A stretch of DNA of 64,000 nucleotides. It comes from an uncultured Candidatus Saccharibacteria bacterium. Lineage in GTDB: Bacteria; Patescibacteriota; Minisyncoccia; Minisyncoccales; UBA5738. Numbering within the stretch: position 1 is the first letter of the stretch; the number at the start of each line of letters is the position of its first letter. Position numbers and translations under genes: made by a program. Below the pieces are notes generated by a model. It saw nothing but the letters and a program-made list of their open reading frames with translations. It had not been told where the DNA came from and ran no database searches. The DNA is taken from positions 29,740-93,739 of the forward strand of contig CAYYEP010000002.1 of assembly GCA_964470995.1 (NCBI GenBank), written 5' to 3'. Shown in pieces: positions 29,309 to 58,829 of the stretch.

Positions 29309-29362
29309 AAAATAAACTACCCCGGGGACAGAGCCCCGAAGTATTCTGGCAGATAAATAAAA
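29309..29362 (-). repeat. GC-rich repeat family A, minimal 54-bp copy (A1)
   Basis: Minus strand reads TTTATTTATCTGCCAGAATAC...CCCCGGGGTAGTTTATTTT, i.e. both family termini with the interior deleted. Confidence 0.7.
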
Positions 29363-29371
29363 AAGGACGGC

Positions 29372-30364
29372 TTAACGAACCGCCGCGTGCACCGTAAACA
29401 CTGCCGCCGGCATCGCGCACGGCGGCACGCTGTTGCGGCAAACCGGCTCGCCCGTCGCGATCACATCGGTATCGCCAAACCGCAACGCCCGGAATAACCC
29501 CGGCGCCCCTGTCGCCGCAACCGCGTTTTCCCGAACGACAATCGTATTATCTACTGCCGCGGCATTCCAATTATAATCTTGGCCAAGCTTGAGTAAAAAC
29601 GTTTCTCCCGCTTCCAGCGCAATATTCGTCTGGTCGTTTGCCAAAGTCACGATCTTGCCGGAATAATTATATGTTGGCACTGATGATTCCGGAACCGCCG
29701 CCGCTTCCGCAACATTGAAAACGAATGTTACCGCCATCCTGGCAATCGGCTCTTCGATAGCCGTCTTACGATCCAAATTGGCACATTCGGTTTCATACTG
29801 TGTGCCGCAATACGCTCCGCAACCGCCAAACCCGCATGCCGTATGCGATCTTATGACAAAATTAATTACTGCCGCCCCGCCGGAAGCGCGCTCAAAAACG
29901 TAGCAATAGCTTGAATACAGCTGTCCCGCACCTGCGTCGGATCCGGCATATATCGTATAAGCTGTACCCGCGTCAGTTTTACCCGCAACCCCCGCCGGGA
30001 TATTGCCGGTGTCGTCATGGATATCCCCGCAACCGGCCGCTACCGGATCCTGCCCCGCGCCCACCAGCACCGCCAGCGGCGGCCACTGCGCCGGGCTCCA
30101 CACATTGGCCCCAAAATTAACCTGATATTTAAAAGAAAACTCTTTCCCGGCGGCGGTATAAATCCGCCATTCCTCCCTTGTATTATCCTGTACCATTTCC
30201 ATTTGCCCCTGTTCAATCGCTTGACCCTGTTCCTGATCTTGATTTTTGGTTGCTTTATCACCGTCCGATCCCGCCGGATTTTTTATCAGCACATATCCCG
30301 CCACCCCCAAAATCACTATCAAAACCGCTGCCGCTCCTCCCAGGATCACGCTGGTTTTGTTCAT
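29372..30364 (-). CDS. secreted/anchored protein, unknown function
   Basis: 330 aa. N-terminal anchor and a Cys-containing central domain. The C-terminal ~100 aa is beta-rich (IALEAGETFLLKLGQDYNW) and faintly resembles chagasin-type inhibitor domains. Confidence 0.6.
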   Translation of the reverse strand: MNKTSVILGGAAAVLIVILGVAGYVLIKNPAGSDGDKATKNQDQEQGQAIEQGQMEMVQDNTREEWRIYTAAGKEFSFKYQVNFGANVWSPAQWPPLAVLVGAGQDPVAAGCGDIHDDTGNIPAGVAGKTDAGTAYTIYAGSDAGAGQLYSSYCYVFERASGGAAVINFVIRSHTACGFGGCGAYCGTQYETECANLDRKTAIEEPIARMAVTFVFNVAEAAAVPESSVPTYNYSGKIVTLANDQTNIALEAGETFLLKLGQDYNWNAAAVDNTIVVRENAVAATGAPGLFRALRFGDTDVIATGEPVCRNSVPPCAMPAAVFTVHAAVR

Positions 30365-30495
30365 ATAATTGATTACTGGTTTTCACCAATATTAACCCAA
30401 AACACATTAATCATCAATAATAATTGGTTTTAAAATGTAACTTGCCAGTAATCATTCAATTATCCCCTCAACCTTCTTTTAATCTTTTATTGAAT

Positions 30496-30623
30496 AAATC
30501 TTAATACCCCGCGCGTTTGGCGGAGGATGAAAATTTTCCCCCGCAGTATGCGGGGGACGCTTGGAGCAAAGCGGAAAGCGGTTCAACCAAGATCCCGTAG
30601 CGTTTGTCCCGGGGAGATTCATT
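30496..30623 (+). repeat. GC-rich repeat family B, 128-bp copy (B1)
   Basis: AAATCTTAATACCCCGCGCGTTT...CCCCCGCAGTATGCGGGGGA...GGGGAGATTCATT. It aligns end to end with the reverse complement of 42524..42695, apart from a ~45-bp insertion there. Confidence 0.8.
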
Positions 30624-30721
30624 TTTTATGCATATCTGTCTGGGTTTTGTCGCCCGATTAACTTCAAACTAAATTAGTTATAGCCAAAACGCCTCTTTAA
30701 CAAAACTATCGTTGTTCTAAT

Positions 30722-30747
30722 AAAAAGAGGCTTTATAAATTAGCCTC
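30722..30747 (-). terminator. rho-independent terminator
   Basis: GAGGCT / AGCCTC stem followed on the minus strand by TTTTT. It lies 18 nt after the stop of the MBL-fold gene. Confidence 0.6.
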
Positions 30748-30764
30748 AAACTGCCCCGCGCCAT

Positions 30765-31496
30765 TCACACGAATATAATGCCGTCTTTTTCGGCTTGCCG
30801 CCTAACCGCATCGCGGTCTCGCCGCACATGCCACAAGATATTCTCGGTCCCGCGTCCGCTTTTCTTGAACATTTTAAAAATCGAACGCGCGTCCTCATAA
30901 CCCAGATGCTTCGAAGAAGACGGCCCCATGCCGTTATTCGCCTCCAAAATAACTGTTGTTGGCGAAGGCATCGAACCAACGATGCCCTTGAAATTGGTAT
31001 TCTTGCCGGTATCGCCAAAATAAATAATCCGACTACTGTTAAGACGACACCATAATCCGCAACTGCCGCGGGCATGATCCACTTTAAAAACGCGGAAACG
31101 GTCATCTTGCACTCCCGTCTGAATCACCAGTGGCACATTTTTCCGCTTTTTGCCAGACGGCACAATAATACCCCGCGTCGCCTCCACCACTTTGCTTACC
31201 GTGTATTCCGACCCCCACAAGCGCAATTTGTGGCTCTTTCCCCGGGCAAGGGCCGCCCCCCCAATCATCATCTCGAAAAGTTTTGCCACCCCTCTACAGT
31301 GGTCGGTATGGATATGCGAAATGAACATATCCGTTATCGACAGAGGGTCTATGCGGCGCTCCACAATCTTCTCCGGAACACTTGGTCCGCATTCCACCAA
31401 CAAACCCATTTTTTTGTGGCTTAGTAACACTCCAACGCTAGCTTCTTTTAACCGCGATGGAGGAGCCCCCGTATCCAGAATTTCCAATTTGCTCAA
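30765..31496 (-). CDS. MBL-fold metallo-hydrolase
   Basis: HIHTDH (HxHxDH). TTG start preceded by AGGGAGGA at 6 nt. Confidence 0.8.
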   Translation of the reverse strand: MSKLEILDTGAPPSRLKEASVGVLLSHKKMGLLVECGPSVPEKIVERRIDPLSITDMFISHIHTDHCRGVAKLFEMMIGGAALARGKSHKLRLWGSEYTVSKVVEATRGIIVPSGKKRKNVPLVIQTGVQDDRFRVFKVDHARGSCGLWCRLNSSRIIYFGDTGKNTNFKGIVGSMPSPTTVILEANNGMGPSSSKHLGYEDARSIFKMFKKSGRGTENILWHVRRDRDAVRRQAEKDGIIFV

Positions 31497-31651
31497 TCAA
31501 ATCCTCCCTTATGGTTTATGGAAACGTGCTTTAATTTAATTTTAATAAATTACTAAATCATAAACCAACCCGGCTGCAAAAACAAGGCCCCGGCCAATGA
31601 AAAAATTAAAGGATTTATTCGGCGAAAACCCGATACCAAACTGGCCCGACC

Positions 31652-33487
31652 TCAATTCCGCACCTCCATCACGCAATTATCGCAGTCAAAATCAAGTTTG
31701 AATTTTTTGCCCGGCTGCACCAAAAACAGCGGTTCCTTAAAATCAACTTCTTTGGCGCCCGGTTCTTTTGGGCAATATCCCAGCATATGTTTTAAGCAAT
31801 GTTTGCAGATCATCACTTTTTTGCCGCGCGTATTGGCTATTTGCTCGAACGCCGGCTCAATAACCCTGGCTCCATGGCGCTTGTAAAACTCTTTGGCCAA
31901 ATCATTGGAAACATTGAAACTGTAATCCAAATCCAATACCGGGTGAATATTGGTTGTTTTTTTACGCTCGGCCAATATCCGCGGATAATTATTTATCCTC
32001 TCTTTATTAAGAGTTTCGATCACTTCGCGCCGCCAGTCATTTAGTACCGATAACGGCACAAAATACGGTTGTTCAAACTCAAACAAGAAATCGCGAACAA
32101 TAAATATCGTCTCTCCTAATTTTGAAAATTGCTGCTTCCAGGCATTTTGCGCCGCCTCGGGTTTTAACGCCGGTTTTTTTTCAAACGTGAATTCTTTTGT
32201 CGCTGAATTGCCGTCTTCGTCGCTGGCGGTGATCAAGAATCCGTTTTCGACATCGGCAAAAATAATATCAACCTCCACCCGGCGATCCAAACCATTGGCT
32301 ACCTTTTTTTCGAATTCCGGATCCAAATTTCGATAAACTTCAACCCCGGGTTTTACCGGCATCCACCTTGCCGGATATATCCTTTCTCCCGCCACTGAAT
32401 TTATATTCACCCCGGCAAGCTTTCCTTCCGGCCCGATCCAACAGATACCGTCGCCGTTGGCCAGGTCATGCCCCCGGTCAAGAACAAAATTATCGCCGCC
32501 AATCTTTTTTATCTTGCCAATAAATTTTCCCATCGATTTTTGCGTATCGATCGACCCGATATTTTTCTGCCGTCCGCGGAAAAAATGGTCGGTATATCCC
32601 CGGTTGAAGGTCCGCTCCAGGTCAGGCTCGAATCCCAATTCAATCTTCCCCGATGATTGTTTCTTGTATTTGCCGTTGCTGGCCGCAATTACTTCATCCA
32701 GCCGTTTACGGTACGCCGCCACCGCATTCCCAACATATACTTCGTCTTTCAAGCGCCCTTCTATTTTAAACGATGTTACTCCCGCCGCGGCCAATTCCGG
32801 CAACGCGTTATAAAGATTAAGGTCTTTCAGCGACAGTAAATATTTGTCTTTTGCCAAAACCCTACCGGCGCTGTCCACCAACGAATACGGCAACCGGCAC
32901 GCCTGGACGCACTTGCCCCGGTTCGCCGAACGGCCGCATAACGCCTGGCTCATATAACACCGCCCCGAAAACGACACGCATAACGCGCCGTGCACGAAAG
33001 TTTCCAAATCGACGGTTGTCTTTTTGCGGATAACCCTCATCTGTTCCAACGAAAGCTCACGCGCCAGAATCACCCGCGAAAATCCCGCATCTTCCAAGAA
33101 TTTAACCTGCGCCGCATCATAATTATGCGTCTGCGTACTGGCAAAAATTGGTATCGGCGGCAAATCCATTTCCATTATTCCCATATCCTGAATAATAATC
33201 GCGTCAACCCCGGTTTTATAAGCGGTCCAGATCATCTCTTTTACCTCGCGCGCTTCTTCATTGAAAAAAATGGTATTTATCGGCAGATAAACTTTAACAT
33301 AATACCGATGAGCAAAATCGACTAATGATTTTATATCTTCCCAAGAATTACCCGCAGCCGCGCGCGCGCCAAAATCTGGCCCGCCGATATAAACTGCGTC
33401 CGCGCCCGCGCGAACGGCGATTTTGCCCGTTTCCAGGTCCTTGGCCGGCGCCAGCAATTCCAATTCAATTTGTTTGTCTGTTTCCAT
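31652..33487 (-). CDS. peptidase U32 family protein
   Basis: 611 aa from ATG 33487. The track ORF extends to TTG 33517, which lies inside the upstream terminator hairpin. U32 core (ELLAPA, DAVYIGG, FVHGALCVSFSGRC) and a C-terminal CxxC...CxxC tail. Confidence 0.85.
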   Translation of the reverse strand: METDKQIELELLAPAKDLETGKIAVRAGADAVYIGGPDFGARAAAGNSWEDIKSLVDFAHRYYVKVYLPINTIFFNEEAREVKEMIWTAYKTGVDAIIIQDMGIMEMDLPPIPIFASTQTHNYDAAQVKFLEDAGFSRVILARELSLEQMRVIRKKTTVDLETFVHGALCVSFSGRCYMSQALCGRSANRGKCVQACRLPYSLVDSAGRVLAKDKYLLSLKDLNLYNALPELAAAGVTSFKIEGRLKDEVYVGNAVAAYRKRLDEVIAASNGKYKKQSSGKIELGFEPDLERTFNRGYTDHFFRGRQKNIGSIDTQKSMGKFIGKIKKIGGDNFVLDRGHDLANGDGICWIGPEGKLAGVNINSVAGERIYPARWMPVKPGVEVYRNLDPEFEKKVANGLDRRVEVDIIFADVENGFLITASDEDGNSATKEFTFEKKPALKPEAAQNAWKQQFSKLGETIFIVRDFLFEFEQPYFVPLSVLNDWRREVIETLNKERINNYPRILAERKKTTNIHPVLDLDYSFNVSNDLAKEFYKRHGARVIEPAFEQIANTRGKKVMICKHCLKHMLGYCPKEPGAKEVDFKEPLFLVQPGKKFKLDFDCDNCVMEVRN

Positions 33488-33493
33488 TTTAAT

Positions 33494-33525
33494 TAAAAAG
33501 CGGAGTCGATGATTCAAACCTCCGC
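33494..33525 (-). terminator. rho-independent terminator of the KOW mini-gene
   Basis: GCGGAG...CTCCGC stem followed by TTTTT. The TGA stop (33514-33516) sits in the loop. Confidence 0.6.
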
Positions 33526-33684
33526 CGCTTCAATAATTTCCACGTCTTGTCGTGCAACCGGGGTCGTAAAATTAAAAAGTTCCCCGATACTGATAAAAAA
33601 TGTTTCCGGAAATTGATTCCCGTTCTCAATCAGCGAACCGATTTTCCCCTCAAAGGGGCCGCGCAATACTTTAACGCGTATCAT
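33514..33684 (-). CDS. 56-aa KOW-domain-only protein (NusG C-terminal-domain-like)
   Basis: Hand translation: MIRVKVLRGPFEGKIGSLIENGNQFPETFFISIGELFNFTTPVARQDVEIIEAAEV. The VxVxxGPFxGxxG...SI....TPV....VE pattern matches the NusG KOW domain. It is below the 60-aa track cutoff and has its own terminator. Confidence 0.5.
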   Translation of the reverse strand: MIRVKVLRGPFEGKIGSLIENGNQFPETFFISIGELFNFTTPVARQDVEIIEAAEV

Positions 33685-33738
33685 AGCCACAGCATACCCA
33701 AAATTGCCAAAATTTCAAGCACCCTACACAAACACCAT

Positions 33739-34566
33739 CTATTTTATTCCGTTTATGATCTCCGCCAATGGCTGCAAATTTCCGCCCCTGATCACAATAT
33801 CGAACTTTTCAAATATAACCTCATAAAAATGTTCTCCCCGGGAATCATCCTTGCGCGCCTCATCGATAAAAACCCGCAAAACATTTTCAATGCCATCCGC
33901 CATCGCCGCGTCCTCGATATTGTCGCCCGCCAATATCGCATAAGGCCGCTCCCGGCGCAAACCGGCAAGCTCGCTATGCCCCATCTCGCGTTTATTGAAA
34001 TTATGAATTAGCGACTCCCTTTTCCAGCCGCACACACAACCATTATCGTCAAAACGCAAAGTTGTCGACAAAATTTTTGTCGGCGATATTTGAAACTTCC
34101 GGCACCATAATTCGATTACATCTTTTATTCCGGCCGAAATTATCACCGTAGGAATTTTTTTGCGGCCGCAAATATCAAACAACTCTTTTACCCCGGAACG
34201 GGCCGGCACTATCTGCTCAACCTCAACCTCCAATTCCGACCACTTGAGATTACGTCCCTTGTAAGCATCCAGCACCGCCGACCACCATTCAATCGCATCG
34301 GCAACCGTCATTTCTCCCCTCAACTCCATCGGCCGGTATTTTTTATACAACGCATCGACCACCGCTTTTTTATCCGCCGGAAGGCGGCGATTCAACAATT
34401 TCCAAGAGGCGACATCCTTGCCATTCTCATTGCGCCCGGGCGTAAGCGTGCGGTCAAAATCAAAAACCGCGTGCAATTTATCTTTGCCTTCCCGGCAAAT
34501 AAGCTCCAGCTTATTTCTAACCGCCGCTTTATCCCCAAAAACCAAGTTATCCGAAATCTCTTCCAT
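33739..34566 (-). CDS. HAD hydrolase, eukaryotic-type pyrimidine 5'-nucleotidase (UMPH-1)-like
   Basis: DFDRTLT (motif I), IPTVIISAGIKDVIE and ILAGDNIEDAAMADG. Order and spacing are as in the cytosolic 5'-nucleotidase III family. Confidence 0.7.
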   Translation of the reverse strand: MEEISDNLVFGDKAAVRNKLELICREGKDKLHAVFDFDRTLTPGRNENGKDVASWKLLNRRLPADKKAVVDALYKKYRPMELRGEMTVADAIEWWSAVLDAYKGRNLKWSELEVEVEQIVPARSGVKELFDICGRKKIPTVIISAGIKDVIELWCRKFQISPTKILSTTLRFDDNGCVCGWKRESLIHNFNKREMGHSELAGLRRERPYAILAGDNIEDAAMADGIENVLRVFIDEARKDDSRGEHFYEVIFEKFDIVIRGGNLQPLAEIINGIK

Positions 34567-34623
34567 TATCGCCTTTTATATTTAAATAATCAGTTTCCCG
34601 CCTGCGCCCAAAAATCCGGCCTT

Positions 34624-34666
34624 AGTATATACTTAGTATATACTAAATATATACACGGTATATACT
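34624..34666. promoter_or_regulatory. four TATATAC-core sites phased at exactly 11 bp (operator/promoter-like array)
   Basis: AGTATATACT (34624), AGTATATACT (34635), AATATATACA (34646), GGTATATACT (34657). The first two are perfect 10-bp palindromes. The array lies 58-100 nt upstream of the nucleotidase start. Confidence 0.5.
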
Positions 34667-34667
34667 C

Positions 34668-34697
34668 AAAAACAAATGCCGCGCTTCAATGCGGCAT
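34668..34697 (-). terminator. rho-independent terminator
   Basis: ATGCCGC / GCGGCAT stem followed on the minus strand by TTGTTTTTG. Confidence 0.6.
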
Positions 34698-34713
34698 ATA
34701 TGGCCGAAATATT

Positions 34714-34983
34714 TTATTTCTCTTGCCTTCCCGCCGCCTCCGCGGCAAATTCATCTATTATCTTTTCTTTCTTCCGGTCATTTTCCGCCGCCTCCGCGGC
34801 CGCATCAGCCTCTTTTAATGTTTCTTCCAGCCCGGCCTCGACAGCTTCCAAATCTTGCTTCATTGAAGCAAGCGCTCCTTCCATCAAATCTAGATCGGGA
34901 TTCTCTTTTTCAAGCTTGTTCATTTCCCTGATATCCATCATCTCACCTCCTTTTCCTGTAATTGTTTTTGATTCTTCTTCCAT
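34714..34983 (-). CDS. small acidic coiled-coil protein
   Basis: 89 aa rich in Glu/Asp/Ala/Lys. It starts 20 nt after the stop of the 600-aa gene. Confidence 0.45.
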   Translation of the reverse strand: MEEESKTITGKGGEMMDIREMNKLEKENPDLDLMEGALASMKQDLEAVEAGLEETLKEADAAAEAAENDRKKEKIIDEFAAEAAGRQEK

Positions 34984-35003
34984 AGTTTATCAAATTATTT
35001 TTG

Positions 35004-36806
35004 TCAAGCCTGGCTTTCGCGTTTGCTATCCAAGAAATTTCGATACTCTTGCTCCAATCTGTCCCTTAAATTGGCTCTAATTTTCGGATTTTTTTGATAA
35101 TATTTTTCAACTACCGCTTGAAAATCTTCCCAAGATACATTTTGAGAAATGTCGGCCTTATTGACAAACTCGCCCGGATTCAGCAATATGATCTTCCCCA
35201 GATCGGTTTCGCTTTTTAATTCCTTCGCTAATTTTTCTTGAAGAAAACTGTTCCATAGTTTAATCGCGTCCTGAATCCAAAATTTCGGCGTCTCCTCGCT
35301 TTCTTGCCGCTTCCCATCCAATTCCCGCAAGGCCGCGGCCAACTCTTGTTCGTTCGTTGCGAAACCGTTACGCGCTGTTTCTATATTTTCCAACAACGCC
35401 GTTGCACCGGAAAATCTTGATTCATAGTAACTTTTTATTTTTTGTTTAAATTCTGCAACAGTTAATTGTTCGCTTTCTTCCAACGATAACCCTTCTTCAA
35501 CGGCTGCATCTATCGTAAAACCCTTATCAACCTTTTGCTCGAAATGTTCTTTCCATAGCTCCAGCAAATCGCCGGCATCATACTTTGTCTCGGGATTTTC
35601 CCGATTCGTTTCTTCTTCCGGTATTCGCCCGTTTTGGGCTCCCACATTATTCTCCTCCTGGACGTTCGGACTGCTCGCCGCTTCTTCCGCTCGCGGCGTA
35701 ACAAAAAGCGGTTTTTTATCTAATATCGCTTTGTATTCGTTGCTGCGATCGGCTTCCTTGATTTTCGCGTTAAGTCTCGTGATCCTCTGCTCCATCTTTG
35801 CCCGCTTTATTTTTATTTCTTCCCATTCTTCCAGAACCTTGCGCCGTCGCTTGATCCTCTCGTTAAATTTTTTTATCTCTTCTTTGAGCTCTTTGTCATT
35901 CAATCCCGCCTCTTCGGCTTCTTTTATGCCGTCTACTTTTTCTTTTTCAAGAAGTTCAACTTCGTTCTTTAATCCTTTGAAATAGATTACCAATGGCGCA
36001 GTTTTTTCATCAAAATCACGCAATTCATTCTTATACTTCAATTCTTTGGCTTTCAAAGGCGCAATCCTTTCATTATTCTTGCGCCTCATCCAGTCAACAT
36101 ACCGATTACGGTTAGTTTCGCTAACTTTCGCCGCCGCCTCGTGTTCGCCGATCTTCGGCATCAGTTGTTCTTTTTTTCTTTGCAACTCGTCGATTTTTTC
36201 GTTCCGCGTCCGCGTAAGGATACCCGCCAGTGAATTTCCCGCGGCCAAATTTGGATCCGCATTATTCGCCGCCGCTGCGGCCGCCGCCGCTTCGTTTTTC
36301 TGATTAAACAATTTTATTTGGTCGTCGATATCTTTAACCTTCGCATTTAATTTTCTTGTCTCTTCATTTGATTTATCCAAAAAATACTGGTCGAATTTCA
36401 TTCCAAACCGCGCCGCCGCCCTATCCAGCCCCGGAACATTCAAAAGTCCGTTAAACGCCCCGCGGCCCCGGTCGGTTATCCGTTCCAGCTTGCCTCGATC
36501 ATCAGGAGATAGTCCGTATTCGTGCAGATTATATTCCGCCCGCAAATCCAGGCTCCCATCGGTTTCCGCGCCCCCTTCGCTCGCAACATTTTCGGTCGAT
36601 GCGCCGCGACCCGAATGCTCTTCGGAAATTTTATGGCTTTCTTGTTCGGCTAAAACATCCTCCGCCGCCTTTTTTCTTTTTTCTTCCTCGTCCATTATTT
36701 CTCCCGATCGCCCCAAATGAAAATCTTCAACCCCGAGCGGTTCTTCTGGCAAAGCATCTGCCCGCCCCGCATTATCGCTGGAAAAAAAATGTTTCTCGAC
36801 GTCCAT
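35004..36806 (-). CDS. 600-aa Lys/Glu-rich coiled-coil protein, unknown function
   Basis: No TM helices and a long heptad-like centre. Two C-terminal modules of about 55 aa share the pattern LW...K...(V/W)xEF.....YY. Confidence 0.6.
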   Translation of the reverse strand: MDVEKHFFSSDNAGRADALPEEPLGVEDFHLGRSGEIMDEEEKRKKAAEDVLAEQESHKISEEHSGRGASTENVASEGGAETDGSLDLRAEYNLHEYGLSPDDRGKLERITDRGRGAFNGLLNVPGLDRAAARFGMKFDQYFLDKSNEETRKLNAKVKDIDDQIKLFNQKNEAAAAAAAANNADPNLAAGNSLAGILTRTRNEKIDELQRKKEQLMPKIGEHEAAAKVSETNRNRYVDWMRRKNNERIAPLKAKELKYKNELRDFDEKTAPLVIYFKGLKNEVELLEKEKVDGIKEAEEAGLNDKELKEEIKKFNERIKRRRKVLEEWEEIKIKRAKMEQRITRLNAKIKEADRSNEYKAILDKKPLFVTPRAEEAASSPNVQEENNVGAQNGRIPEEETNRENPETKYDAGDLLELWKEHFEQKVDKGFTIDAAVEEGLSLEESEQLTVAEFKQKIKSYYESRFSGATALLENIETARNGFATNEQELAAALRELDGKRQESEETPKFWIQDAIKLWNSFLQEKLAKELKSETDLGKIILLNPGEFVNKADISQNVSWEDFQAVVEKYYQKNPKIRANLRDRLEQEYRNFLDSKRESQA

Positions 36807-36896
36807 AAGATTATTCGTTAATTGATTAGATTTTAGTTCGTTTAAGCGGTAAGGTCAAACAAAAAAACCGATGTTTTCCGCAGTTTTCAGCCATAA

Positions 36897-39752: not shown

Positions 39753-41549
39753 TTAATTTCGGTTTTTGATTTTGGCAAGGACTTCGGCGATAAAATCTTT
39801 TTTTGAAATTGTGCGGGCGGCTTTGGCGCCGCGGTCGCGAACAGATAGCGTTTCAGACTGCTTCTCTTTATCTCCAATCACCAAAACATAAGGAATCTTT
39901 TCGCCGGCGGCTTTGCGGATCTTGTTGCCCAGGGTCTCGTCGGCAGAATCAACTTCCGCGCGAATACCCGCTTGCCGAAACTCATCGGCCAGCTTTTGGC
40001 AAAAATCAACGTGCGCTTCGCCCACCGAAAGGATTTTAGCCTGCACCGGCGACAGCCAAACCGGGAACGCCCCAGCGTAATGCTCAATCAACAACCCGAT
40101 AAATCTTTCGAATGATCCAAACAGCGCGCGATGCAGCATATACGGCCGCTCTGGCTCGCCCTTTTGATTCACAAATGACATTCCAAATCTTTCCGGCAAA
40201 TTGAAATCAAACTGCAAGGTAGAACACTGCCATTCCCGGCCCAAAACATCCTTTATCTTGAAATCAAGCTTGGGCCCGTAAAACGCCGCCTCACCCAGCT
40301 CCTCTTTAAAGTTTAATCCACTTCCTTTGGCAACGTTGCGCAAAATATTTTCGGTAAATTCCCATCCTTCGTCATCACCGGCGTATTTTTCCTTTTTCTG
40401 CGGATCGCGCAACGATAAATAGACATTCACCGATTCCATCGGAAAGCCAAACGCCCCGTACACATAAGCGATAAAATCAATCACGCGCTTAAGCTCGTCC
40501 TCCACCTGCTCCTTGCGGCAAATAATATGCGCGTCATCCTGCGTAAAACCGCGCACGCGCGTCAATCCGGAAAGCTCGCCTTTTTTTTCATAACGGTAAA
40601 CCGTGCCGCACTCGGCCCAGCGCATCGGAAATTCCCGGTACGAATGCAAATCGTTTTTGTATATCCGCACGTGGAACGGGCAATTCATCGGCTTAAGCAG
40701 ATACTGCTCCGATTCTTCAAGTTTTTTACCGGTTTTCAAGTCCTCTAATGACTGGCCCACTTCCATTGCCGGATACATACTCGATGAATAAAACCCCCAA
40801 TGGCCGGATTTTTCCCACAACCTCCGATTGCCGATATGGGGAGTGCGTACCAATTCATAGCCCGCCTTCAAGTGAGCGTCATACCAAAAATCCTCGATCA
40901 CGCGCCAAAGCATCGCCCCATTGGGATGCCATAACGCCAATCCCAATCCCGCGTCTTCATCAATATGAAACAGGTCAAGCTCTTTTCCAAGTTTGCGATG
41001 ATCGCGCTTTTCCGCCTCCTCCAAATTTTTCAGATACGCTTCAAGTTCGGACTTGGAACTAAATGCCGCTCCATAAAGGCGAGTCAGCATTTTATTTTTT
41101 TCATTGCCTTTCCAATAAGCTCCGGCAATCTTTTGCAGTTTAAATCCGTCTATCGCCAAATCCTTGCCCGATTCAATATGCGGCCCGCGGCAAAGATCAA
41201 TAAAATCGCCGCTCCGGTAAACTAAAAACTTTTGTTCACCCTCGTTTTCCAAATCGGAAATAATCTCTAGTTTATATGGCTGGTCCGCAAAAATTTCCCG
41301 CGCCGCATCCAGCGAAACCTCGCGCCGCTCGAACGTCACCCCGCCGCCGATGATTCTTTTCATCTTAATCTCGATCTCTTTTAAATTTTCAGGCGCCAGA
41401 TTTTTTCCGGCCAGATCAAAATCATAATAAAAACCATCTTCGATCGCCGGACCAATACCAAACTTCGCCTCCGGATATAGGCTTTTTACCGCCGCCGCCA
41501 TTATATGCGCCAGCGAATGTCGCGCCGCCTCAATTTTATTATTTTCCAT
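39753..41549 (-). CDS. thrS: threonine--tRNA ligase (no N-terminal TGS domain)
   Basis: 598 aa. Editing-domain HSLAHIMA, class II core (YRYEKKGELSGLTRVRGFTQDDAHI), C-terminal anticodon-binding domain. Confidence 0.95.
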   Translation of the reverse strand: MENNKIEAARHSLAHIMAAAVKSLYPEAKFGIGPAIEDGFYYDFDLAGKNLAPENLKEIEIKMKRIIGGGVTFERREVSLDAAREIFADQPYKLEIISDLENEGEQKFLVYRSGDFIDLCRGPHIESGKDLAIDGFKLQKIAGAYWKGNEKNKMLTRLYGAAFSSKSELEAYLKNLEEAEKRDHRKLGKELDLFHIDEDAGLGLALWHPNGAMLWRVIEDFWYDAHLKAGYELVRTPHIGNRRLWEKSGHWGFYSSSMYPAMEVGQSLEDLKTGKKLEESEQYLLKPMNCPFHVRIYKNDLHSYREFPMRWAECGTVYRYEKKGELSGLTRVRGFTQDDAHIICRKEQVEDELKRVIDFIAYVYGAFGFPMESVNVYLSLRDPQKKEKYAGDDEGWEFTENILRNVAKGSGLNFKEELGEAAFYGPKLDFKIKDVLGREWQCSTLQFDFNLPERFGMSFVNQKGEPERPYMLHRALFGSFERFIGLLIEHYAGAFPVWLSPVQAKILSVGEAHVDFCQKLADEFRQAGIRAEVDSADETLGNKIRKAAGEKIPYVLVIGDKEKQSETLSVRDRGAKAARTISKKDFIAEVLAKIKNRN

Positions 41550-41556
41550 ATTTTTG

Positions 41557-41739
41557 TTTATTTATCTGCCGGAATACTCCGCCGGCTTTGCCACGGGGAT
41601 GAATGGCTGCCCGTAGCGTCGCGGCGGCTATAAATAAACTTTTCCTAACACGCGCGCAAGCGAAGCGGAAGGAATGCCTCGAGGCTCATCGTTTCGAATG
41701 CGAACCGCCCAGCGGTCAGCCCCGGAGTAGTTTATTTTA
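41557..41739 (+). repeat. GC-rich repeat family A, full-length 183-bp copy (A2) inside the thrS 5' UTR
   Basis: TTTATTTATCTGCCGGAATACTCCGCCGGCTTTGCCACGGGGATGAATGGCTGCCCGTAGCGTCGCGGCGGC...CCCCGGAGTAGTTTATTTTA. By eye about 85-90 percent identical to the reverse complement of 52969..53119 over the first ~115 bp. Confidence 0.8.
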
Positions 41740-41793
41740 AATACATTTTGCCGCAGCCTAACCTTATCGGATATCCACAAGATTAATCCTCCC

Positions 41794-42009
41794 AAAAAAC
41801 GCAAAACCTCGCCCAAACACTAAATCATCAAATTTAGTATTAGGGCGAGGTTTTTTGCTCTCGCGGTTCCACCTAAGTTACTCCCGCCTTGGCAAGAATA
41901 TCTCTTTTTGCCGTTTCAGCTTGGACCATTCAAGGTTCCCGTCTTTTATCCGGGATTGCGATTGGTAGCCGCAACGATTGCTTCCATGGCAATATTCTGT
42001 TATAGACTC
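41794..42009 (-). promoter_or_regulatory. T-box riboswitch leader (Thr) of thrS
   Basis: T-box core AGGUGGAACCGCG (41874-41862). The antiterminator has helix UUAGG/CCUAA, a 7-nt bulge UGGAACC and helix GCGAG/CUCGC. The competing terminator is CCUCGCCC (41850-41843) / GGGCGAGG (41814-41807) plus UUUUGCGUUUUUU. Thr codons sit at GAA-ACG-G (41914-41912) and ACC-A (41966-41964). Confidence 0.8.
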
Positions 42010-42038
42010 ATCTTAATTCCGCAAAACCAAGATGTCAA
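42010..42038 (-). promoter_or_regulatory. sigma-70-like promoter of the thrS leader
   Basis: TTGACA (42038-42033), 17-nt spacer, TAAGAT (42015-42010). Confidence 0.6.
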
Positions 42039-42073
42039 TAGTAGTATGCAACAAAACCCGCTCATCTCGAATA

Positions 42074-42105
42074 TAAAAAGCCCCGGAATCTTCAAAGATC
42101 GGGGC
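42074..42105 (-). terminator. rho-independent terminator
   Basis: GCCCCG...CGGGGC stem followed by TTTTT on the minus strand. The stop codon of the upstream ORF lies within the hairpin. Confidence 0.65.
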
Positions 42106-42523: not shown

Positions 42524-42695
42524 AATGAATCTCCCCGGCCTTACGCCACGGGGTATTTTCGTTGAACCGCCTTCCGCTTTGCTCCAGGCATCCCCCGCAT
42601 ACTGCGGGGGAAAATCTTCATCCCCACGCTTCCTCCCGATTACGGGAGGCGCCCCGCCGCAGTCGCGGCGGAAAACGCGCGGGGTATTAAGATTT
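42524..42695 (-). repeat. GC-rich repeat family B, 172-bp copy (B2)
   Basis: The reverse complement aligns with 30496..30623 at both termini and the core. It carries an extra ~45-bp module (CCGCCGCGACTGCGGCGG, CCTCCCGTAATCGGGAGG). Confidence 0.8.
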
Positions 42696-42715
42696 GTTCA
42701 ATAATGATTGCGATT

Positions 42716-48248: not shown

Positions 48249-48363
48249 TTTATTTATCTGCCAGAATACCCCGCCGGCTTTGCCGCGGGGATGAATGGCT
48301 GCCCGTATCGTAAGCGGAGCGGAAGAAATATCTTTGGTCTCTGCCCCAGGGCAGTTTATTTAT
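48249..48363 (+). repeat. GC-rich repeat family A, 115-bp internally deleted copy (A3)
   Basis: TTTATTTATCTGCCAGAATACCCCGCCGGCTTTGCCGCGGGGATGAATGGCTGCCCGTA joined to CGTAAGCGGAGCGGAAGAAATA...CCCCAGGGCAGTTTATTTATA. It lacks the ~40-bp central module of A2 and A4. Confidence 0.8.
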
Positions 48364-50982: not shown

Positions 50983-51069
50983 CGGAGGGGGCGAGATTCG
51001 AACTCGCGATACCTTGCGGTATATGCGCTTTCCAAGCGCACGCACTCGACCGGGCTATGCGACCCCTCC
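50983..51069 (-). tRNA. tRNA-Ser (GGA)
   Basis: Hand-folded cloverleaf. Acceptor GGAGGGG/CCCCTCC, anticodon arm TGCGC-TTGGAAA-GCGCA, long variable arm ATACC-GCAA-GGTAT, T arm GCGAG-TTCGAAT-CTCGC, discriminator G. Confidence 0.9.
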
Positions 51070-51307
51070 ACTTAACAAAAACTTTGATTTATTCACTTTA
51101 TTAATCTAGCTTATTTAAAAACCGATTTCAAGCCAAACGCCTTATTAAAAAATAATTCCCAAAAAGGAATTAATTAGTCGGCATTACAAACGGCCGAGAG
51201 TATGCCAACTGTTGTCAATCATCGTGCCTATCGGTTCTTCGGAATATCTTTCAAATTTCTTCGGCGATTTGCCGCCAGCAATAATTAATCGTACCAATCA
51301 ATATTAA

Positions 51308-52216: not shown

Positions 52217-52341
52217 AGATGCTGGTTTATAAATCTCGTTTCGTGATTTATGAATTTAAACCATAAATCTTAAATCACGATTCAATACCAAATTGCACCG
52301 CGCAAGGCAGTGCAACTTAACTCAAAACATCAAAAAATGAA

Positions 52342-52911: not shown

Positions 52912-52968
52912 TTTTTTAAGTAGTTTATGGTTAATTACATTCTAAGCAAAAAACGGAAAAAATCAAGC

Positions 52969-53119
52969 AATAAAATACCCCGGGCAAAGCCCCGGGGTAT
53001 TTCTTTCGCTTCGCTTACGCTGCGCGTTAGGAAAAGTAAGTTTTTAGCCGCCGCGACGCTGAGGGCAGCCATTCATCCCCGCGGCAAAGCCGGCGGGGTA
53101 TTCTGGCAGATAGATAAAA
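52969..53119 (-). repeat. GC-rich repeat family A, 151-bp copy (A4)
   Basis: The reverse complement reads TTTATCTATCTGCCAGAATACCCCGCCGGCTTTGCCGCGGGGATGAATGGCTGCC...ATACCCCGGGGCTTTGCCCGGGGTATTTTATT. Confidence 0.8.
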
Positions 53120-53125
53120 TGAGTT

Positions 53126-53521
53126 TCAGCGCAATTTGTCAAGCCCAATGCCAATTCCCAACGGCCGGTCAGGAATATCATGCCTTGAAGTCTTTGGCAA
53201 AAATAATTTTCCCGCAAGCCCCGCCGCGATCACTTCCTTTTTGGTCAGTACTTCTCCTTTTCTCCAACAGTCGACTTTTATCTTATCGCTTGTATAATCC
53301 ACAAGGCAAACCGGACAAAATTTTGCTCCAAGCCGCTTAAGCGCGTTAAACCGGTGATGGCCGTCAAGAATGACCAAAGTGTTTTTATCTGCAATTATCG
53401 GATTCTTGACGCAGCCATCTTTTTTAATTTCGGCTAACAGGCGTTCCAAATGGCACTCGATCACCATCTCGTGTTGTTTCAAAAGATTTATATTGATATT
53501 TTTAATTTCGTATTCAGCCAT
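53126..53521 (-). CDS. stand-alone ParB/Srx N-terminal-domain protein
   Basis: 131 aa. ILDGHHRFNAL (DGHHR) motif. No HTH or other domain. Confidence 0.6.
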   Translation of the reverse strand: MAEYEIKNININLLKQHEMVIECHLERLLAEIKKDGCVKNPIIADKNTLVILDGHHRFNALKRLGAKFCPVCLVDYTSDKIKVDCWRKGEVLTKKEVIAAGLAGKLFLPKTSRHDIPDRPLGIGIGLDKLR

Positions 53522-53744
53522 ATGAAATTAAAAACCCCTTTAGGAAAGGGGCGGGAATTATTCTTTAAATAAAACTCAGCCGCTTTTCCTCAAAGAGATA
53601 ATTTGCCGGCAACAAATTTGTTTAAAACTCATTCCAGCCATATTTTTAATCTATTCCAAAACGCACAAGCTGTCAAAACCAAAAACCCCTTCCGGGGCTT
53701 TGGCTTCCAATCCTTCTGGATTGAAAAAATTAAACCTCTTATTT

Positions 53745-55394
<1,650 letters not shown>

Positions 55395-55542
55395 TTAAGT
55401 TCTAAATTCCAAACTCCAAATTCCAAACAAATTATAATTACCAAAATTATAATGTTAAAAACGGATTCTGTTTGCAGTATTTGGCGATTATAATTTGGAT
55501 ATTATTTGTGATTTGGCGATTGGTGCTTAGGATTTTAAGCAA

Positions 55543-55836
55543 CTATTCTTCGATAGTTGCAAGAATGTCGTCTTCTTTCGCGATCAAGTATTCCTTGCCG
55601 TCGACTTTGATTTCATTCGGACCGTATTTGGAAAACAAAACTTTTTGGCCTATTTTTATCGAGACCGGAATAATCTGCCCCTGCTTGTTCTTTTTGCCCG
55701 GACCAACCGCAATCACCTTGCCCTGTTCAGGCCGCTCCTTATCGGCGCTGGCTGGAAGTAAAATTCCCGACTTGGTTTTTTCTTCGTTCTTGACGGACTC
55801 GATCAATATATTATCCGCGCATGGCGTAATTTTCAT
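55543..55836 (-). CDS. groS: co-chaperonin GroES
   Basis: 97 aa. ILIESVKNEEKTKSGILLP mobile-loop region. Confidence 0.95.
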   Translation of the reverse strand: MKITPCADNILIESVKNEEKTKSGILLPASADKERPEQGKVIAVGPGKKNKQGQIIPVSIKIGQKVLFSKYGPNEIKVDGKEYLIAKEDDILATIEE

Positions 55837-55994
55837 ACCTTTTTAAAATATTCAATATTCAACCGTCCAATTTTAAAAAAATTTCAATATTCAATAACTA
55901 AAAATCCCGTTTGATATCTTTTTAATTATTGATGTTTGGATATTTTTTGAAAATTGGAAATTGCTTATTAAATATTATTTGATTTTATATTGAA

Positions 55995-56021
55995 TTAGCA
56001 ATCTCAACCTTCGACTGCTAA
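55995..56021. promoter_or_regulatory. CIRCE operator (HrcA-binding inverted repeat)
   Basis: TTAGCAATC-N9-GACTGCTAA against the consensus TTAGCACTC-N9-GAGTGCTAA. It lies just downstream of the groES promoter. Confidence 0.8.
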
Positions 56022-56030
56022 CGCACTATT

Positions 56031-56059
56031 TATTTATCCTTTTCGAATTTCGTTGTCAA
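56031..56059 (-). promoter_or_regulatory. groES promoter
   Basis: TTGACA (56059-56054), 17-nt spacer, TAAATA (56036-56031). CIRCE starts about 10 nt after the -10 box. Confidence 0.5.
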
Positions 56060-56103
56060 TCCCGTATGCTAAAAATCGAATAACCCTTGCCGCGCAAAAA
56101 AAA

Positions 56104-56131
56104 TTGCAGAGTTTGGCTGGTTTGATAGAAT
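56104..56131 (+). promoter_or_regulatory. candidate promoter of the plus-strand gene run
   Basis: TTGCAG, 16-nt spacer, TAGAAT, located 19 nt before ATG 56150. Confidence 0.35.
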
Positions 56132-56149
56132 GAAAAATATAAAGTTGGA

Positions 56150-56509
56150 ATGCTGGCAAAAATAATCGCATATACTATCGGCAGCAGCCTGGCCTTGTGG
56201 GTTGCGGCCAGATTCATACCCGGTGTTTCTTATATCGGCAACTGGGAGATACTGGCCCTGGCCGGTTTTGGCATCGCCCTGTTCAACCTCGCCGTCGCGC
56301 CCATTCTGCGCGTGCTCACTCTGCCCCTGCGAATCTTGACTTTTAATTTATTTAGCCTAGTAATAGATATGGCAATGGTCTGGTTCGCGGACGCCCTTAT
56401 CTTGGAAATGAACATCCAGGATATCCCCGCCCTTTTCTGGACCACCCTGATCGTAATGATATTTAATACAATAGTATGGCAAATATTGTCCCCATCGCCC
56501 AGATCGTAA
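56150..56509 (+). CDS. YvlD/DUF360 (Pfam Phage_holin_4_2) family membrane protein
   Basis: 119 aa with 4 TM helices. The family call comes from overall pattern only. Confidence 0.65.
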   Translation: MLAKIIAYTIGSSLALWVAARFIPGVSYIGNWEILALAGFGIALFNLAVAPILRVLTLPLRILTFNLFSLVIDMAMVWFADALILEMNIQDIPALFWTTLIVMIFNTIVWQILSPSPRS

Positions 56510-56697
56510 TCGCAATCATCCTGACCGGCTTGATTTTAATCCAACAGCGCGGCGGCGGCGGCCTGGGTTCGGCATTCGGCCAGGAAAGCGGCGCCTACTC
56601 CACCCAGCGCGGCATACAAAAAAAAATTTTTCGCATCACTATCGTTTTTGCGGCGCTGTTCATCGGCTTGGCGGTATACAACCTGTTCCAAAATTAA
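56476..56697 (+). CDS. secG: preprotein translocase subunit SecG
   Basis: 73 aa. Two TM helices separated by the Gly-rich QQRGGGGLGSAFG. Overlaps the previous gene by 34 nt. Confidence 0.8.
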   Translation: MANIVPIAQIVIAIILTGLILIQQRGGGGLGSAFGQESGAYSTQRGIQKKIFRITIVFAALFIGLAVYNLFQN

Positions 56698-56760
56698 TCA
56701 CTCCGGTTTTCAAAAAATCTATTTTCAATGTATCAAATTGAATGCAATGCGTTTTTGTTT

Positions 56761-56788
56761 GAAAATTGAAAATTGAAAATTGAAAATT
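56761..56788 (+). repeat. heptanucleotide tandem repeat (GAAAATT)x4
   Basis: Four perfect units ending 13 nt before the ATG at 56802. Confidence 0.9.
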
Positions 56789-56801
56789 GCGAAGCGGACT
56801 A

Positions 56802-58763
56802 ATGAAGTTTCCCACTTTTGCCCATTGGAAACAATTCTTTAAAATCATCTCTCCCAAAGAAAAAATATCTTTCTTTTTCTTTCTTGCGCTGGCGTTGGTT
56901 TCGCTGGTATCTTTGGCGGCCGTCTCCTATATCAATAACACCGAAAATGTCCCTGCCGATAACGGCGTCTACACCGAAGGCGTTATCGGAGAACCAAGGT
57001 TCCTGAATCCCGTTTATTCGGACTCCAATGCCGCCGACCGCGACATCGTCGAACTACTTTTTGCCAGCCTGATCAAATATGACCAAAACGGAATAATAGT
57101 TCCCGATCTGGCCGACTTCAGGATCGCCGATGACGGAAAAACCTACGAATTCTTCTTGAAAGATGACCTCGTATGGTCCGACGGCAAGCCCATCACCGCC
57201 GATGATGCCATATACACCATCAAAATAATCCAGGATCCAGCCTACAAAAGCCCCCTGCGCACTCAATGGATCGGCGTGGAAACCGAAAAAATTTCCGACA
57301 GCAGCTTCCGCCTCAAACTTAAAAATCCTTCCGCTAAATTTCTCGAATACTGCGTACTCAAAATCATTCCTCAACACGCTTGGAAAAGCACAACCGCAGA
57401 AAGCTTTTCCCTCTCCAATCTAAACCTCCTCCCGATAGTTTCCGGAATGTATACGGTAAAAGAAACTTCTTCCAACCGCGATAACTCAATATCGTCAATC
57501 ACGCTCGAACGCAACCCGGCCTATTTCGGAACAAAACCCCATCTCAAAACCGTTACTTTCGCTTTCTTCGAAGATTATGATAGCCTTGCCGCCGCTTTCA
57601 AGCGCGGCCGCGTCCAAGGTTATGCTTTTGCGTCCGAAATCGCCGGCAATACGGTGTTCTCGGGGACTGTCGATTATTCCTACACCCTTCCGCGTTACTA
57701 CGCCATTTTCTTTAATCAGGAAAAAAACCATGCTTTGGCTGATATCGCGGTCAGAAAAGCCCTTAACTACGCCATCAATAAGCAGGAAATCATCGAAAAA
57801 CCTCTTAACAATCTGGGAACCGCCGTCGACTCGCCGATCCTTCCCCAACTCTACGGCATCACCGCTCCCGAAACAATATATAATTACGATCCGCAGCTTG
57901 CCGCCCGGCTTCTGGACGAAAGCGGCTATGTCGCCGGTGAAGGCGGCGTCCGCTCCAAAACCATCGACCGCAATCCTGCCTTCCAATTCACCAAGAATTT
58001 GGCCGCCGGCAGTTCGCTGACCAACGACATCAAAGAACTGCAAAAATGCTTGATCAAAGAAGTCATGCCCGATCTGGACTCCAATGGAAATTTCGGCCCC
58101 AAAACTACCGAAGCGGTAAAACTATTCCAGGAGAAATACCGCGCCGAAATTCTTGATCCGCAAGGACTTAAAGATCCCTCCGGCGACGTCAAGGCCGCCA
58201 CTCGCGACAAACTCAACCTGGTCTGTTTCCCTTCCGGCAACAAAACCACCACTCTCACCGTCGGGTTAGTCGTGCCCAACCAGGAACCATTTATCGCCAC
58301 CGCCCAGATGATCAAAGCCCAATGGGCCGCCATCGGCGTCACCGCCAATATCGAAACCAAAGATATTTCCATTCTCGAACGCGAGATCGCCAAGCCCCGC
58401 GAATACGAATCGCTTCTTTTCGGCCAAGCGCTCGGAATGATTTGCGACCCCTACCCCTTCTGGTCTTCCAGTCAAAAAGATGACCCGGGACTCAACTTCG
58501 CGCTTTATTCCAACGAAAACGCCGATAAACTTCTCGACGACATCCGCCAAACGGCCGACGCGTCCGCCCGCAACGCCAAACTTAACGAACTGCAAAATAT
58601 AATCCTTGGCGAAATACCCGCGATTTTCCTGTATAATTCCGATTATGTATACGCCGTATCCAAGAACGTAAAAGGGATTGCTCCCGGAATAATCTCCGAT
58701 CCCGGCCAACGATTTTCCGGCATTGAAAACTGGTACATATCCACAAAAAGAGTTTTTAAGTAG
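56802..58763 (+). CDS. family-5 solute-binding protein with inserted peptidoglycan-binding-like domain
   Basis: Peptide/nickel SBP fold throughout. A ~75-aa insert, IKELQKCLIKEVMPDLDSNGNFGPKTTEAVKLFQEKY, is of PG_binding_1 type. ATG at 56802. Confidence 0.8.
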   Translation: MKFPTFAHWKQFFKIISPKEKISFFFFLALALVSLVSLAAVSYINNTENVPADNGVYTEGVIGEPRFLNPVYSDSNAADRDIVELLFASLIKYDQNGIIVPDLADFRIADDGKTYEFFLKDDLVWSDGKPITADDAIYTIKIIQDPAYKSPLRTQWIGVETEKISDSSFRLKLKNPSAKFLEYCVLKIIPQHAWKSTTAESFSLSNLNLLPIVSGMYTVKETSSNRDNSISSITLERNPAYFGTKPHLKTVTFAFFEDYDSLAAAFKRGRVQGYAFASEIAGNTVFSGTVDYSYTLPRYYAIFFNQEKNHALADIAVRKALNYAINKQEIIEKPLNNLGTAVDSPILPQLYGITAPETIYNYDPQLAARLLDESGYVAGEGGVRSKTIDRNPAFQFTKNLAAGSSLTNDIKELQKCLIKEVMPDLDSNGNFGPKTTEAVKLFQEKYRAEILDPQGLKDPSGDVKAATRDKLNLVCFPSGNKTTTLTVGLVVPNQEPFIATAQMIKAQWAAIGVTANIETKDISILEREIAKPREYESLLFGQALGMICDPYPFWSSSQKDDPGLNFALYSNENADKLLDDIRQTADASARNAKLNELQNIILGEIPAIFLYNSDYVYAVSKNVKGIAPGIISDPGQRFSGIENWYISTKRVFK

Positions 58764-58829
58764 ATGCCCCGGGACAAAGCCCAAGATATCCCTTCTGCTC
58801 CGCTTACACTGCGCGTGCAGATAAATAAA
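58763..58829 (-). repeat. GC-rich repeat family A, 67-bp deleted copy (A5)
   Basis: The reverse complement reads TTTATTTATCTGC-ACGCGCAGTGTAAGCGGAGCAGAAGGGATATCTTGGGCTTTGTCCCGGGGCATC. It abuts the stop codon of the SBP gene. Confidence 0.65.

Follow-up and report, generated by a model that had tools for sequence, protein, structure and literature searches.

What are the short GC-rich repeats that recur between the genes of an uncultured Candidatus Saccharibacteria bacterium, and how do they spread? [quoted passage not shown] We conclude, with a probability of about 0.85, that family A consists of gene-less palindrome-associated transposable elements (PATEs) derived from IS200/IS605 insertion sequences (ISs), whose movement most likely depends on a Y1 (HUH) TnpA transposase that is encoded elsewhere and acts in trans. 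The mobility in the earlier description therefore stands and its class does not, family A being neither a MITE with terminal inverted repeats (TIRs) and a target-site duplication (TSD) nor a REP. Features of PATEs found in family A are its size, same-strand palindromes without TIRs, the likeness of these palindromes to those of Y1 ISs, unequal linkers with guides, and site polymorphism.

Five stretches of the window (A1 to A5, Table 1) were read directly and then aligned, and pairs among them were recovered independently by a repeat search. The left-end 21-mer TTTATYTATCTGCCRGAATAC occurs four times in the 64-kb window at 0 mismatches, against 0.01 expected, and an internal motif, GCGTAAGCGRAGCGRAAGRAATA, also occurs four times, against 0 expected. 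The repeat search paired A2 with A4 over 97 nt (89% identity), A3 with A4 over 64 nt (94%) and A2 with A3 over 63 nt (94%). The sequence-only reading had placed the five copies correctly to within a few bases. The nested internal deletions that it described were also recovered: A3 lacks ~40 nt of the core between the hairpins, A5 lacks the left hairpin, and A1 consists of the left end and a single hairpin.

Architecture of the family A ends

The consensus of the family (~161 nt, TTTATTTATCTGCCAGAATACCCCGTCGGCTTTGCCGCGGGGATGAATGGCTGCCCGTAGCGTAGCGAAGCGGAGCGGAGGCTATAAACAAACTTTTCCTACCGCGTAGCGTAAGCGGAGCGGAAGGAATACCTCGGGGCTCTGCCCCGGGGTAGTTTATT), folded as single-stranded DNA (ssDNA), forms two strong hairpins (z -4.1). 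Hairpin 1, CCCCG(T)CGGC-TTT-GCCGCGGGG, is enclosed within an outer GCCA/TGGC stem, and hairpin 2 is TACCTCGGGGC-TCT-GCCCCGGGGTA. Both are on the same strand in direct orientation, each with GAATA(C) on its 5′ side; TTTAT(T) abuts the left end of the element and closes its right end. Neither the consensus nor the window copies have a conserved TIR. Instead, palindromic stems lie close to both termini, at unequal distances: assuming that cutting occurs after TTTAT, 15 nt separate TTTAT from the foot of hairpin 1, and 8 nt separate the 3′ foot of hairpin 2 from the TTTAT end. The corresponding linkers are 19 and 10 nt in IS608, and the general rule for IS200/IS605 elements is '15-16 versus 8 nt' (He et al., PMC3597680). 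The unequal linkers of family A are the signature of IS200/IS605 ends. With copies of 51-180 nt, and a consensus of the length given above, the elements are too short to hold a transposase gene.

The right-end hairpin was further analysed in an alignment of 12 distinct sequences, comprising family A right-end hairpins, A1, a short copy from a metagenome contig (L024), one right end of a sister family (family B, described below) and both ends of a related IS. In this alignment, 89% of cells are paired, and four pairs are changed on both sides, a number reached by 6 of 500 shuffles. The commonest state at stem position 3 is T-G (9 of the 12 sequences). As T-G turns into A-C on the other strand, the hairpin structure is strand-specific.

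Copies beyond the window, filled sites and empty sites

Copies outside the window were sought by an exact scan with the left-end 21-mer, followed by sequence extraction and a profile search. Family A was found in the Patescibacteria metagenome-assembled genomes (MAGs) UBA6102 (L001) and UBA5738 (L004), in one MAG labelled Pacearchaeota (L005) and in 18 metagenome contigs. Among the extracted sequences, the consensus recurs nearly identically in at least 10 distinct flank contexts, and the sequence just left of TTTATT and right of GTTTATT varies freely between them. The profile search added copies with one hairpin (L009 ~860-905 and L024 ~2517-2566). Three 21-mer matches were rejected as chance, being located within coding sequence: two in contigs labelled Lachnospiraceae (L002 and L003) and one (L016) that is 100% identical to L002. 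No match to two patterns was found in viral contigs, giving no sign of a phage vector.

Evidence for insertion comes from two orthologous contigs, L011 and L019, with flanks 87-90% identical. The filled site in L011 reads ...GATTTACCGTT TTTATT, then the element (TATCTGCC...GGGGTAGTTTATT), then TTTTGGAAA..., whereas the empty site in L019 reads ...GATTCGCCGTT TTTATT TTTTGGAAAGG.... The difference is a 155-nt insertion with base-precise limits (...GTT TTTATT [155 nt] TTTTGG... versus ...GTT TTTATT TTTTGG...). Thus, the empty site retains one TTTATT, whereas this motif stands twice in the filled site, once in the left flank and once at the element's right end. The TTTATT flank motif is common to all ~16 contexts. 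Directly 3′ of the insertion, a tandem unit, TTTTTTGGAAA, is present three times in L011 (10143-10175) and once in L019 (~2664-2675).

A second polymorphism concerns the window itself. L001 is syntenic with the window from 42.7 to 50.4 kb (six genes, 40-75% amino-acid identity). Its glycosyltransferase-GH57 spacer (3714-3809, 97 nt) is without an element, whereas the window has A3 there; conversely, L001 has a copy of its own near tRNA-Ser, and the same place in the window has none. The sequence-only reading had proposed comparing orthologous sites and looking for further copies, and had held that finding neither polymorphism nor more copies would favour conserved regulatory structures over mobility. 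Both were found, and its view of a non-autonomous mobile family with deletion derivatives is borne out by the filled and empty sites, the many flank contexts and the absence of A3 from the syntenic relative.

The same sites bear on whether family A is instead a classical MITE, that is, a deletion derivative of a DDE-transposase IS with TIRs and TTTATT as a 6-bp TSD. TTTATT does flank every intact copy on both sides and occurs once in the empty site, and the CTGCC...GGCAG inverted pair that the sequence-only reading attributed to all copies is present in A3. This pair is, however, missing from the consensus and from A1, A2, A4 and A5. The family right end is ...CCCCGGGGTAGTTTATT, and therefore no TIR is conserved; nor does the right end of A5 (CATCTACTT) fit the consensus that had been proposed for all copies. 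An apparent inverted similarity (TACCCCG) arises only from the palindromic stems at their unequal distances from the ends. Moreover, the 'duplication' is invariant over ~16 contexts, which is unlike a TSD, whose sequence would vary, and like the target and end motif of IS200/IS605 elements, and the sole related coding element found has a Y1 and not a DDE transposase. A MITE origin is thus extremely improbable. The sequence-only reading had left it undecided whether the identical TTTATTTA flanks are part of the element or a duplicated target; under the PATE interpretation, they would represent one fixed TTTAT(T), serving as the target at the left and as the cleavage motif at the right.

We also considered immobile conserved functional RNAs or cis-regulatory modules (small RNA genes, terminator or leader structures). 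The right hairpin with its U-rich tail resembles an intrinsic terminator, and A1 and A3 were flagged as such; A1 and A4 are sense-oriented just past stop codons, the G-T pairs are strand-specific, and sequence conservation across MAGs is high. A fixed RNA or regulatory module is nevertheless hard to reconcile with precise presence and absence at orthologous sites, with unrelated gene contexts in which orientations are divided about half and half among 16 sites, with the persistence of copies whose hairpins are deleted or decayed, and with hairpins that match those flanking a transposase gene. No Rfam family was found at threshold: a search of the whole window at gathering scores returned only a tRNA, and in a permissive scan (E up to 10) of 41450-41900, covering A2 only, the best match over the element was RcsR1 (12.7 bits against a gathering score of 60, E 6.8). 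We judge this explanation highly improbable. Secondary use of some copies as terminators is possible and fits within the PATE interpretation.

Several contigs document what such repeats do to assemblies. Two independent Logan assemblies with identical thrS (L029 1-40 and L030 1-40, equal to 41550-41589 of the window) both stop 40 nt upstream of the thrS ATG, inside the left hairpin of A2; this is a repeat-induced assembly break typical of short-read assemblies. In two further pairs of contigs, the element and one flank are nearly or fully identical and the other flank is unrelated (L019 1-267 versus L008 1494-1760, 100%; L011 9127-10150 versus L025 1-1025, 99.9%). These pairs result either from copies recombining with each other or from assemblies that are chimeric or alternative at the repeat. 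The copy in L005 (3399-3600, the same as in L010 and L012) is a variant with a self-folding extra insert of ~40 nt (AACCCGTTTTCGCGGACTTGTCCGCCGAAGTCCGCTTCAACGGG) in the core. L005 is either archaeal or a mis-binned contig of the candidate phyla radiation (CPR), and its neighbouring genes (topoisomerase I type, AAA ATPase) are compatible with both.

A related transposase-bearing IS and the proposed mechanism

The sequence-only reading had suggested a search for a transposase or a REP-associated tyrosine transposase (RAYT). The open reading frames (ORFs) of the window and of the related loci were screened with IS200 and IS608 TnpA sequences, a screen that serves as a lead only. It returned one match, in a related contig (L009 11340-11789) and not in the window. 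The gene product matches Pfam Y1_Tnp (1.4e-35) and the NCBIfam IS200/IS605 family transposase equivalog NF033573 (125 bits, against a cut-off of 55). The same contig carries one full family A copy and one with a single hairpin. The flanks of this tnpA, CCTCGGGGC-TTT-GCCCCGGGG and CCTCGCGGC-TT-GCCGCGGGG-TAGTTGATT, are almost the stems of family A: CCTCGGGGC...GCCCCGGGG and CCTCGCGGC...GCCGCGGGGTAG, compared with CCTCGGGGC...GCCCCGGGGTAG in the family A right hairpin. On the coding strand, AGAATT-CCTCGGGGCTTTGCCCCGGGG lies before the gene and GCATA-CCTCGCGGCTTGCCGCGGGG-TAGTTGATT after it.

Homologues of the L009 protein are 82-99% identical, and the same IS of ~560 nt occurs in three unrelated contexts, always preceded by TTTTAAT and always ending in GTAGTTGATT. 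Thus, the L009-type IS is a mobile minimal IS200-type element of the same community and not a single-copy RAYT; an empty site for it was not found. No TnpB-like ORF was detected in 262 kb of related DNA (phmmer with an ISDra2 TnpB seed, a lead only). As the related coding element is tnpA-only and no tnpB was detected, there is no sign that family A PATEs carry omega-RNAs.

These results also address a third alternative, namely REP sequences or bacterial interspersed mosaic elements (BIMEs) serviced by a domesticated RAYT (TnpA-REP). Like these, family A consists of abundant GC-rich extragenic hairpins with GTAG beside the stem, and the enzyme belongs to the same Y1 HUH family; some homologues of the L009 protein carry the JGI label 'RayT', and one-hairpin copies of 45-55 nt exist (A1 and the two found by the profile search). 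REPs are lone palindromes of 20-40 nt, mostly arranged as inverted pairs and tagged 5′ with GTAG/CGTC, and their RAYT is a single-copy gene with inverted REPs on both sides. In contrast to REPs, full copies are composites of a defined left and a defined right end with two hairpins in direct orientation, not inverted REP pairs, and they insert precisely as whole 155-nt units; on the pairing strand, GTAG follows the hairpin on its 3′ side. The related TnpA scores at the level of the IS200/IS605 equivalog, is itself flanked by direct hairpins in three contexts and behaves as a mobile IS. A REP-RAYT system is therefore very unlikely.

How might such a gene-less unit move? In the published mechanism, TnpA binds subterminal hairpins of the top strand, guide bases on the 5′ side of each foot pair with a target-adjacent motif (left) and an element-encoded motif (right), and the element is excised as an ssDNA circle that integrates 3′ of its target motif with no duplication (PMC5027513, PMC3597680, PMC10055086). 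Applied to family A, the active (top) strand would read 5′-TTTAT(T)-TATCTGCCA-GAATA-hairpin 1...core...GAATA-hairpin 2-TAG-TTTAT(T)-3′. The two subterminal top-strand hairpins would be bound by TnpA, and the GAATA immediately preceding each hairpin foot on its 5′ side would serve as a DNA guide by pairing with TTTAT. At the left, this pairing would set the cleavage and target site (the target-adjacent motif, TAM), which is outside the element; at the right, it would set the cleavage site (the transposon-encoded motif, TEM) in the last bases of the element. We infer that cutting by TnpA at these ends would release the element as an ssDNA circle by the single-strand 'peel and paste' route, and that insertion would occur 3′ of TTTAT(T) in ssDNA without a true target duplication. 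Most targets would lie in spacers rich in A and T, among them the tails of terminators and the A-rich run that precedes start codons. Under the same interpretation, the shorter window copies arose by deletion between internal direct repeats (the GAATAC-hairpin and GCG(A/T)AGCG units), with A1 as expected from deletion between the two GAATAC-hairpin repeats.

The sequences of the ends are consistent with this scheme. Following the guide rule of PMC3597680 and PMC10055086, GAATA complements TTTAT position by position at both ends (T-G, T-A, T-A, A-T, T-A). The autonomous IS shows a matching change: its left guide reads GAATT, and TTTAA occurs in its conserved left flank. TTTAT has been reported as the TAM of ISGst2 (PMC10055086), and family B and ISGst5 both end in TTCAT.

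Elements of this kind are known; family A documents them in a Patescibacteria (CPR) genome. The PATEs of Haloquadratum walsbyi and the PATE-like elements of Geobacillus stearothermophilus (PMC3119063; PMC10055086) are likewise non-coding and without TIRs. Their near-terminal palindromes are alike and resemble the palindromes of an IS200/IS605 transposon, a short oligonucleotide is fixed both in the 5′ flank and at the 3′ end, the distance to the 5′ palindrome exceeds that to the 3′ one, and insertions are strain-specific. Their inter-palindrome cores are also lost, repeat-mediated deletion between the two palindromes yielding 'terminal-only' versions of ~52 bp (PMC3119063) to which A1 can be compared. 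Family A differs in its host, in its unrelated sequence and in that its related coding element is a minimal tnpA-only IS200-type unit. A search of the available literature found no description of PATEs in Patescibacteria or CPR bacteria. Family A shares with IS608, ISDra2 and IS200 hairpins that lie subterminally on a single strand, a guide sequence on the 5′ side of each hairpin foot and an imperfect base pair conserved in the stem, and its insertion would likewise take place 3′ of a 4-5 nt target; unlike them, it encodes nothing. Its target and end motif are the same (TTTAT and TTTAT), whereas those of IS608 are TTAC and TCAA.

Several observations weigh against this interpretation. The transposase screen found no transposase gene in the 64-kb window, no autonomous IS with exactly the ends of family A was found, and all 20 of the 20 metagenome matches to the left end are gene-less forms. 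The cleavage motifs of the related IS differ from those of family A (TTGATT at the right end, TTTTAAT in the left flank), and its right guide, GCATA, pairs poorly with TTGAT under a simple Watson-Crick rule. The right end of IS608, with TCAA as its right cleavage sequence (CR), then also pairs poorly. The right guide (GR) of IS608 is GAAT (PMC3597680). A sequence-specific 6-bp target duplication would account equally well for the single TTTATT of the empty site. The window copies show no lagging-strand bias, three being on the minus and two on the plus strand despite a uniform GC skew (n = 5). Finally, several window copies (A2, A3 and A5) have poor hairpins and may no longer be mobile.

Individual copies, their surroundings and a sister family

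The copies and related features are listed in Table 1.

Table 1. Coordinates of family A copies, parts of A4, family B copies and the related IS. Positions are those of the window unless a contig is named; the refined copy limits include the target motif.
Feature	Position	Strand	Remarks
A1	29311-29361	-	51 nt, 'terminal-only' copy
A2	41557-41736	+	longest copy, 180 nt; nhmmer 122 bits
A3	48249-48360	+	112 nt, core-deleted
A4	52969-53118	-	150 nt, best-preserved; nhmmer 157 bits, full length
A4, target-like motif TTTATC	53113-53118		
A4, left linker with GAATA guide	53099-53112		
A4, left hairpin	53077-53098		
A4, right hairpin	52973-53002		core lies between both hairpins
A4, closing TTTATT	52969-52974		
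A5	58758-58829	-	nhmmer 30 bits; left hairpin deleted
Possible sixth copy	5095-5175	-	decayed right-end relic; profile search E 0.0013
Sister repeat family B	30486-30623	+	
Sister repeat family B	42524-42704	-	
Sister repeat family B	17932-~18040	+	
tnpA-only IS, ~560 nt	L026 ~278-840		
tnpA-only IS, ~560 nt	L027 ~1001-1565		
tnpA-only IS, ~560 nt	L028 ~383-945		
tnpA-only IS, ~560 nt	L009 11284-11844		

The copies are preserved to very different degrees. In A4, the DNA fold (z -3.0) forms both hairpins. Mismatches weaken A2 at its left end and in its left hairpin, and ~30 extra nt in the loop interrupt its right hairpin; because this copy is degraded, the whole element folds no better than its shuffles (z 0.11). 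A3 has an intact left hairpin and a weak right one with G-T pairs. In A5, TTTATTTATCTGC is joined straight to the right-hand core and right hairpin, and the degenerate right end overlaps the TAG stop of a gene for a solute-binding protein (SBP; 56787-58763). In A1, the left end runs as far as GAATAC and then joins a single hairpin with the closing TAGTTTATT. The possible sixth copy retains the right-hand core and GGAATAC...CTGGCAGTTTATT but lacks a usable hairpin. It occupies the spacer that separates 4394-5062 from 5204-7312 (a PRK-family kinase gene and a 702-amino-acid ORF), where it stands beside a terminator-like hairpin. A4 is 83% identical to the copy in L001, and the window copies are more diverged than those outside. 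Since they are diverged and several are damaged, the family looks old in this genome, and the window copies look partly disabled.

Each of the 16 distinct insertions examined lies between genes, and both orientations with respect to the neighbouring genes occur. Antisense copies often have their left end 6-42 nt away from a start codon (A2, A3, L005, L009 and L021), as would be expected if the target is the complement of the A-rich AATAAA stretch that precedes starts in these genomes. In the window, the sense-oriented copies A1 and A4 are at gene ends, and the antisense copies A2, A3 and A5 are inside or next to probable transcription units. A4 follows the ORF at 53126-53521 and precedes lemA. 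A1 lies 9 nt past the stop of the gene at 29372-30364, with its target inside the T-tail of a terminator-like hairpin native to that gene. Its neighbours are convergent (29372-30364 on the minus strand and 28155-28985 on the plus strand), contrary to the statement in the sequence-only reading that all copies lie between co-directional genes. A3 is antisense within the glycosyltransferase-GH57 spacer, and A5 is antisense to the SBP gene. The identities that had been given to thrS and to the glycosyltransferase, GH57, LemA and SBP genes were all confirmed; the 'parB-like' label beside A4 was not, the ORF there having no Pfam match and the next gene upstream being groEL.

The thrS leader holds A2 in antisense orientation, with the T-box terminator on one side of the copy and the thrS ATG (41549) on the other, 7 nt away from its left end. 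The T-box leader upstream of thrS is divergent (41838-42074, minus strand; terminator hairpin 41803-41854). Its match to Rfam RF00230 reaches 29.5 bits, far short of the gathering score, which is 93 (E 1e-4 when 601 nt are searched), and it contains the conserved AGGUGGAACCGCGAGA motif.

The orientation pattern of the window copies would fit selection against a sense-oriented hairpin and U-tail inside operons (n = 5). It is possible that a sense-oriented right hairpin with its U-rich tail can terminate transcription. By eye and in a promoter and terminator scan, the left end has no convincing -35/-10 pair that would form an outward promoter. A broader proposal is that PATEs are more than parasites in very small CPR genomes. 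CPR genomes are ~1 Mb and are regarded as streamlined. The right hairpin and U-tail may be kept as ready-made terminators or insulators, with antisense copies in leaders such as that of T-box-thrS; alternatively, the conserved 80-nt core may be a guide-type or regulatory RNA acting in trans; and, because one carrier MAG is labelled Pacearchaeota, the element may move between CPR bacteria and DPANN archaea. Taken together, we consider this proposal unlikely.

Family B has an architecture like that of family A, TTATTGAAYAAATCTTAATAC-hairpin...GGGGATGAA...GCGGAAGG...AATAC-hairpin-GAGATTCATT. Its two long copies are 90-97% identical, and one copy has an internal deletion. With TTATT and TTCATT as its end motifs, family B probably represents a second family of PATEs. 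The window contains three copies of family B besides the five or six of family A, ~1 copy per 7 kb. At this density, gene-less IS200-type elements may form a substantial unannotated share of CPR intergenic DNA. Family A elements are a recurrent cause of MAG assembly breaks; knowing their limits prevents their being mistaken for regulatory RNAs, terminators or small-RNA genes, and they can serve as markers of strain-level variation. They also offer a defined pair of TnpA and ends, with TTTAT and TTTAA targets, that is biochemically testable.

Some further features of the window were recorded. GC skew is negative throughout (1-64000; -0.09 to -0.30 per 2 kb), and nearly all genes occupy the minus strand as far as ~55.4 kb and, from ~56.8 kb onward, the plus strand. 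AT-rich spacers with AAATTGAAAATTG-type repeats are located around 55.9-56.8 kb and 60.0-60.1 kb. Finally, three 46-nt direct repeats (ATTGTCTCCACYTCCGGYAGTTCCGGCATATT...), unrelated to family A, are found at 1422-1749 with a spacing of 137-145 nt.

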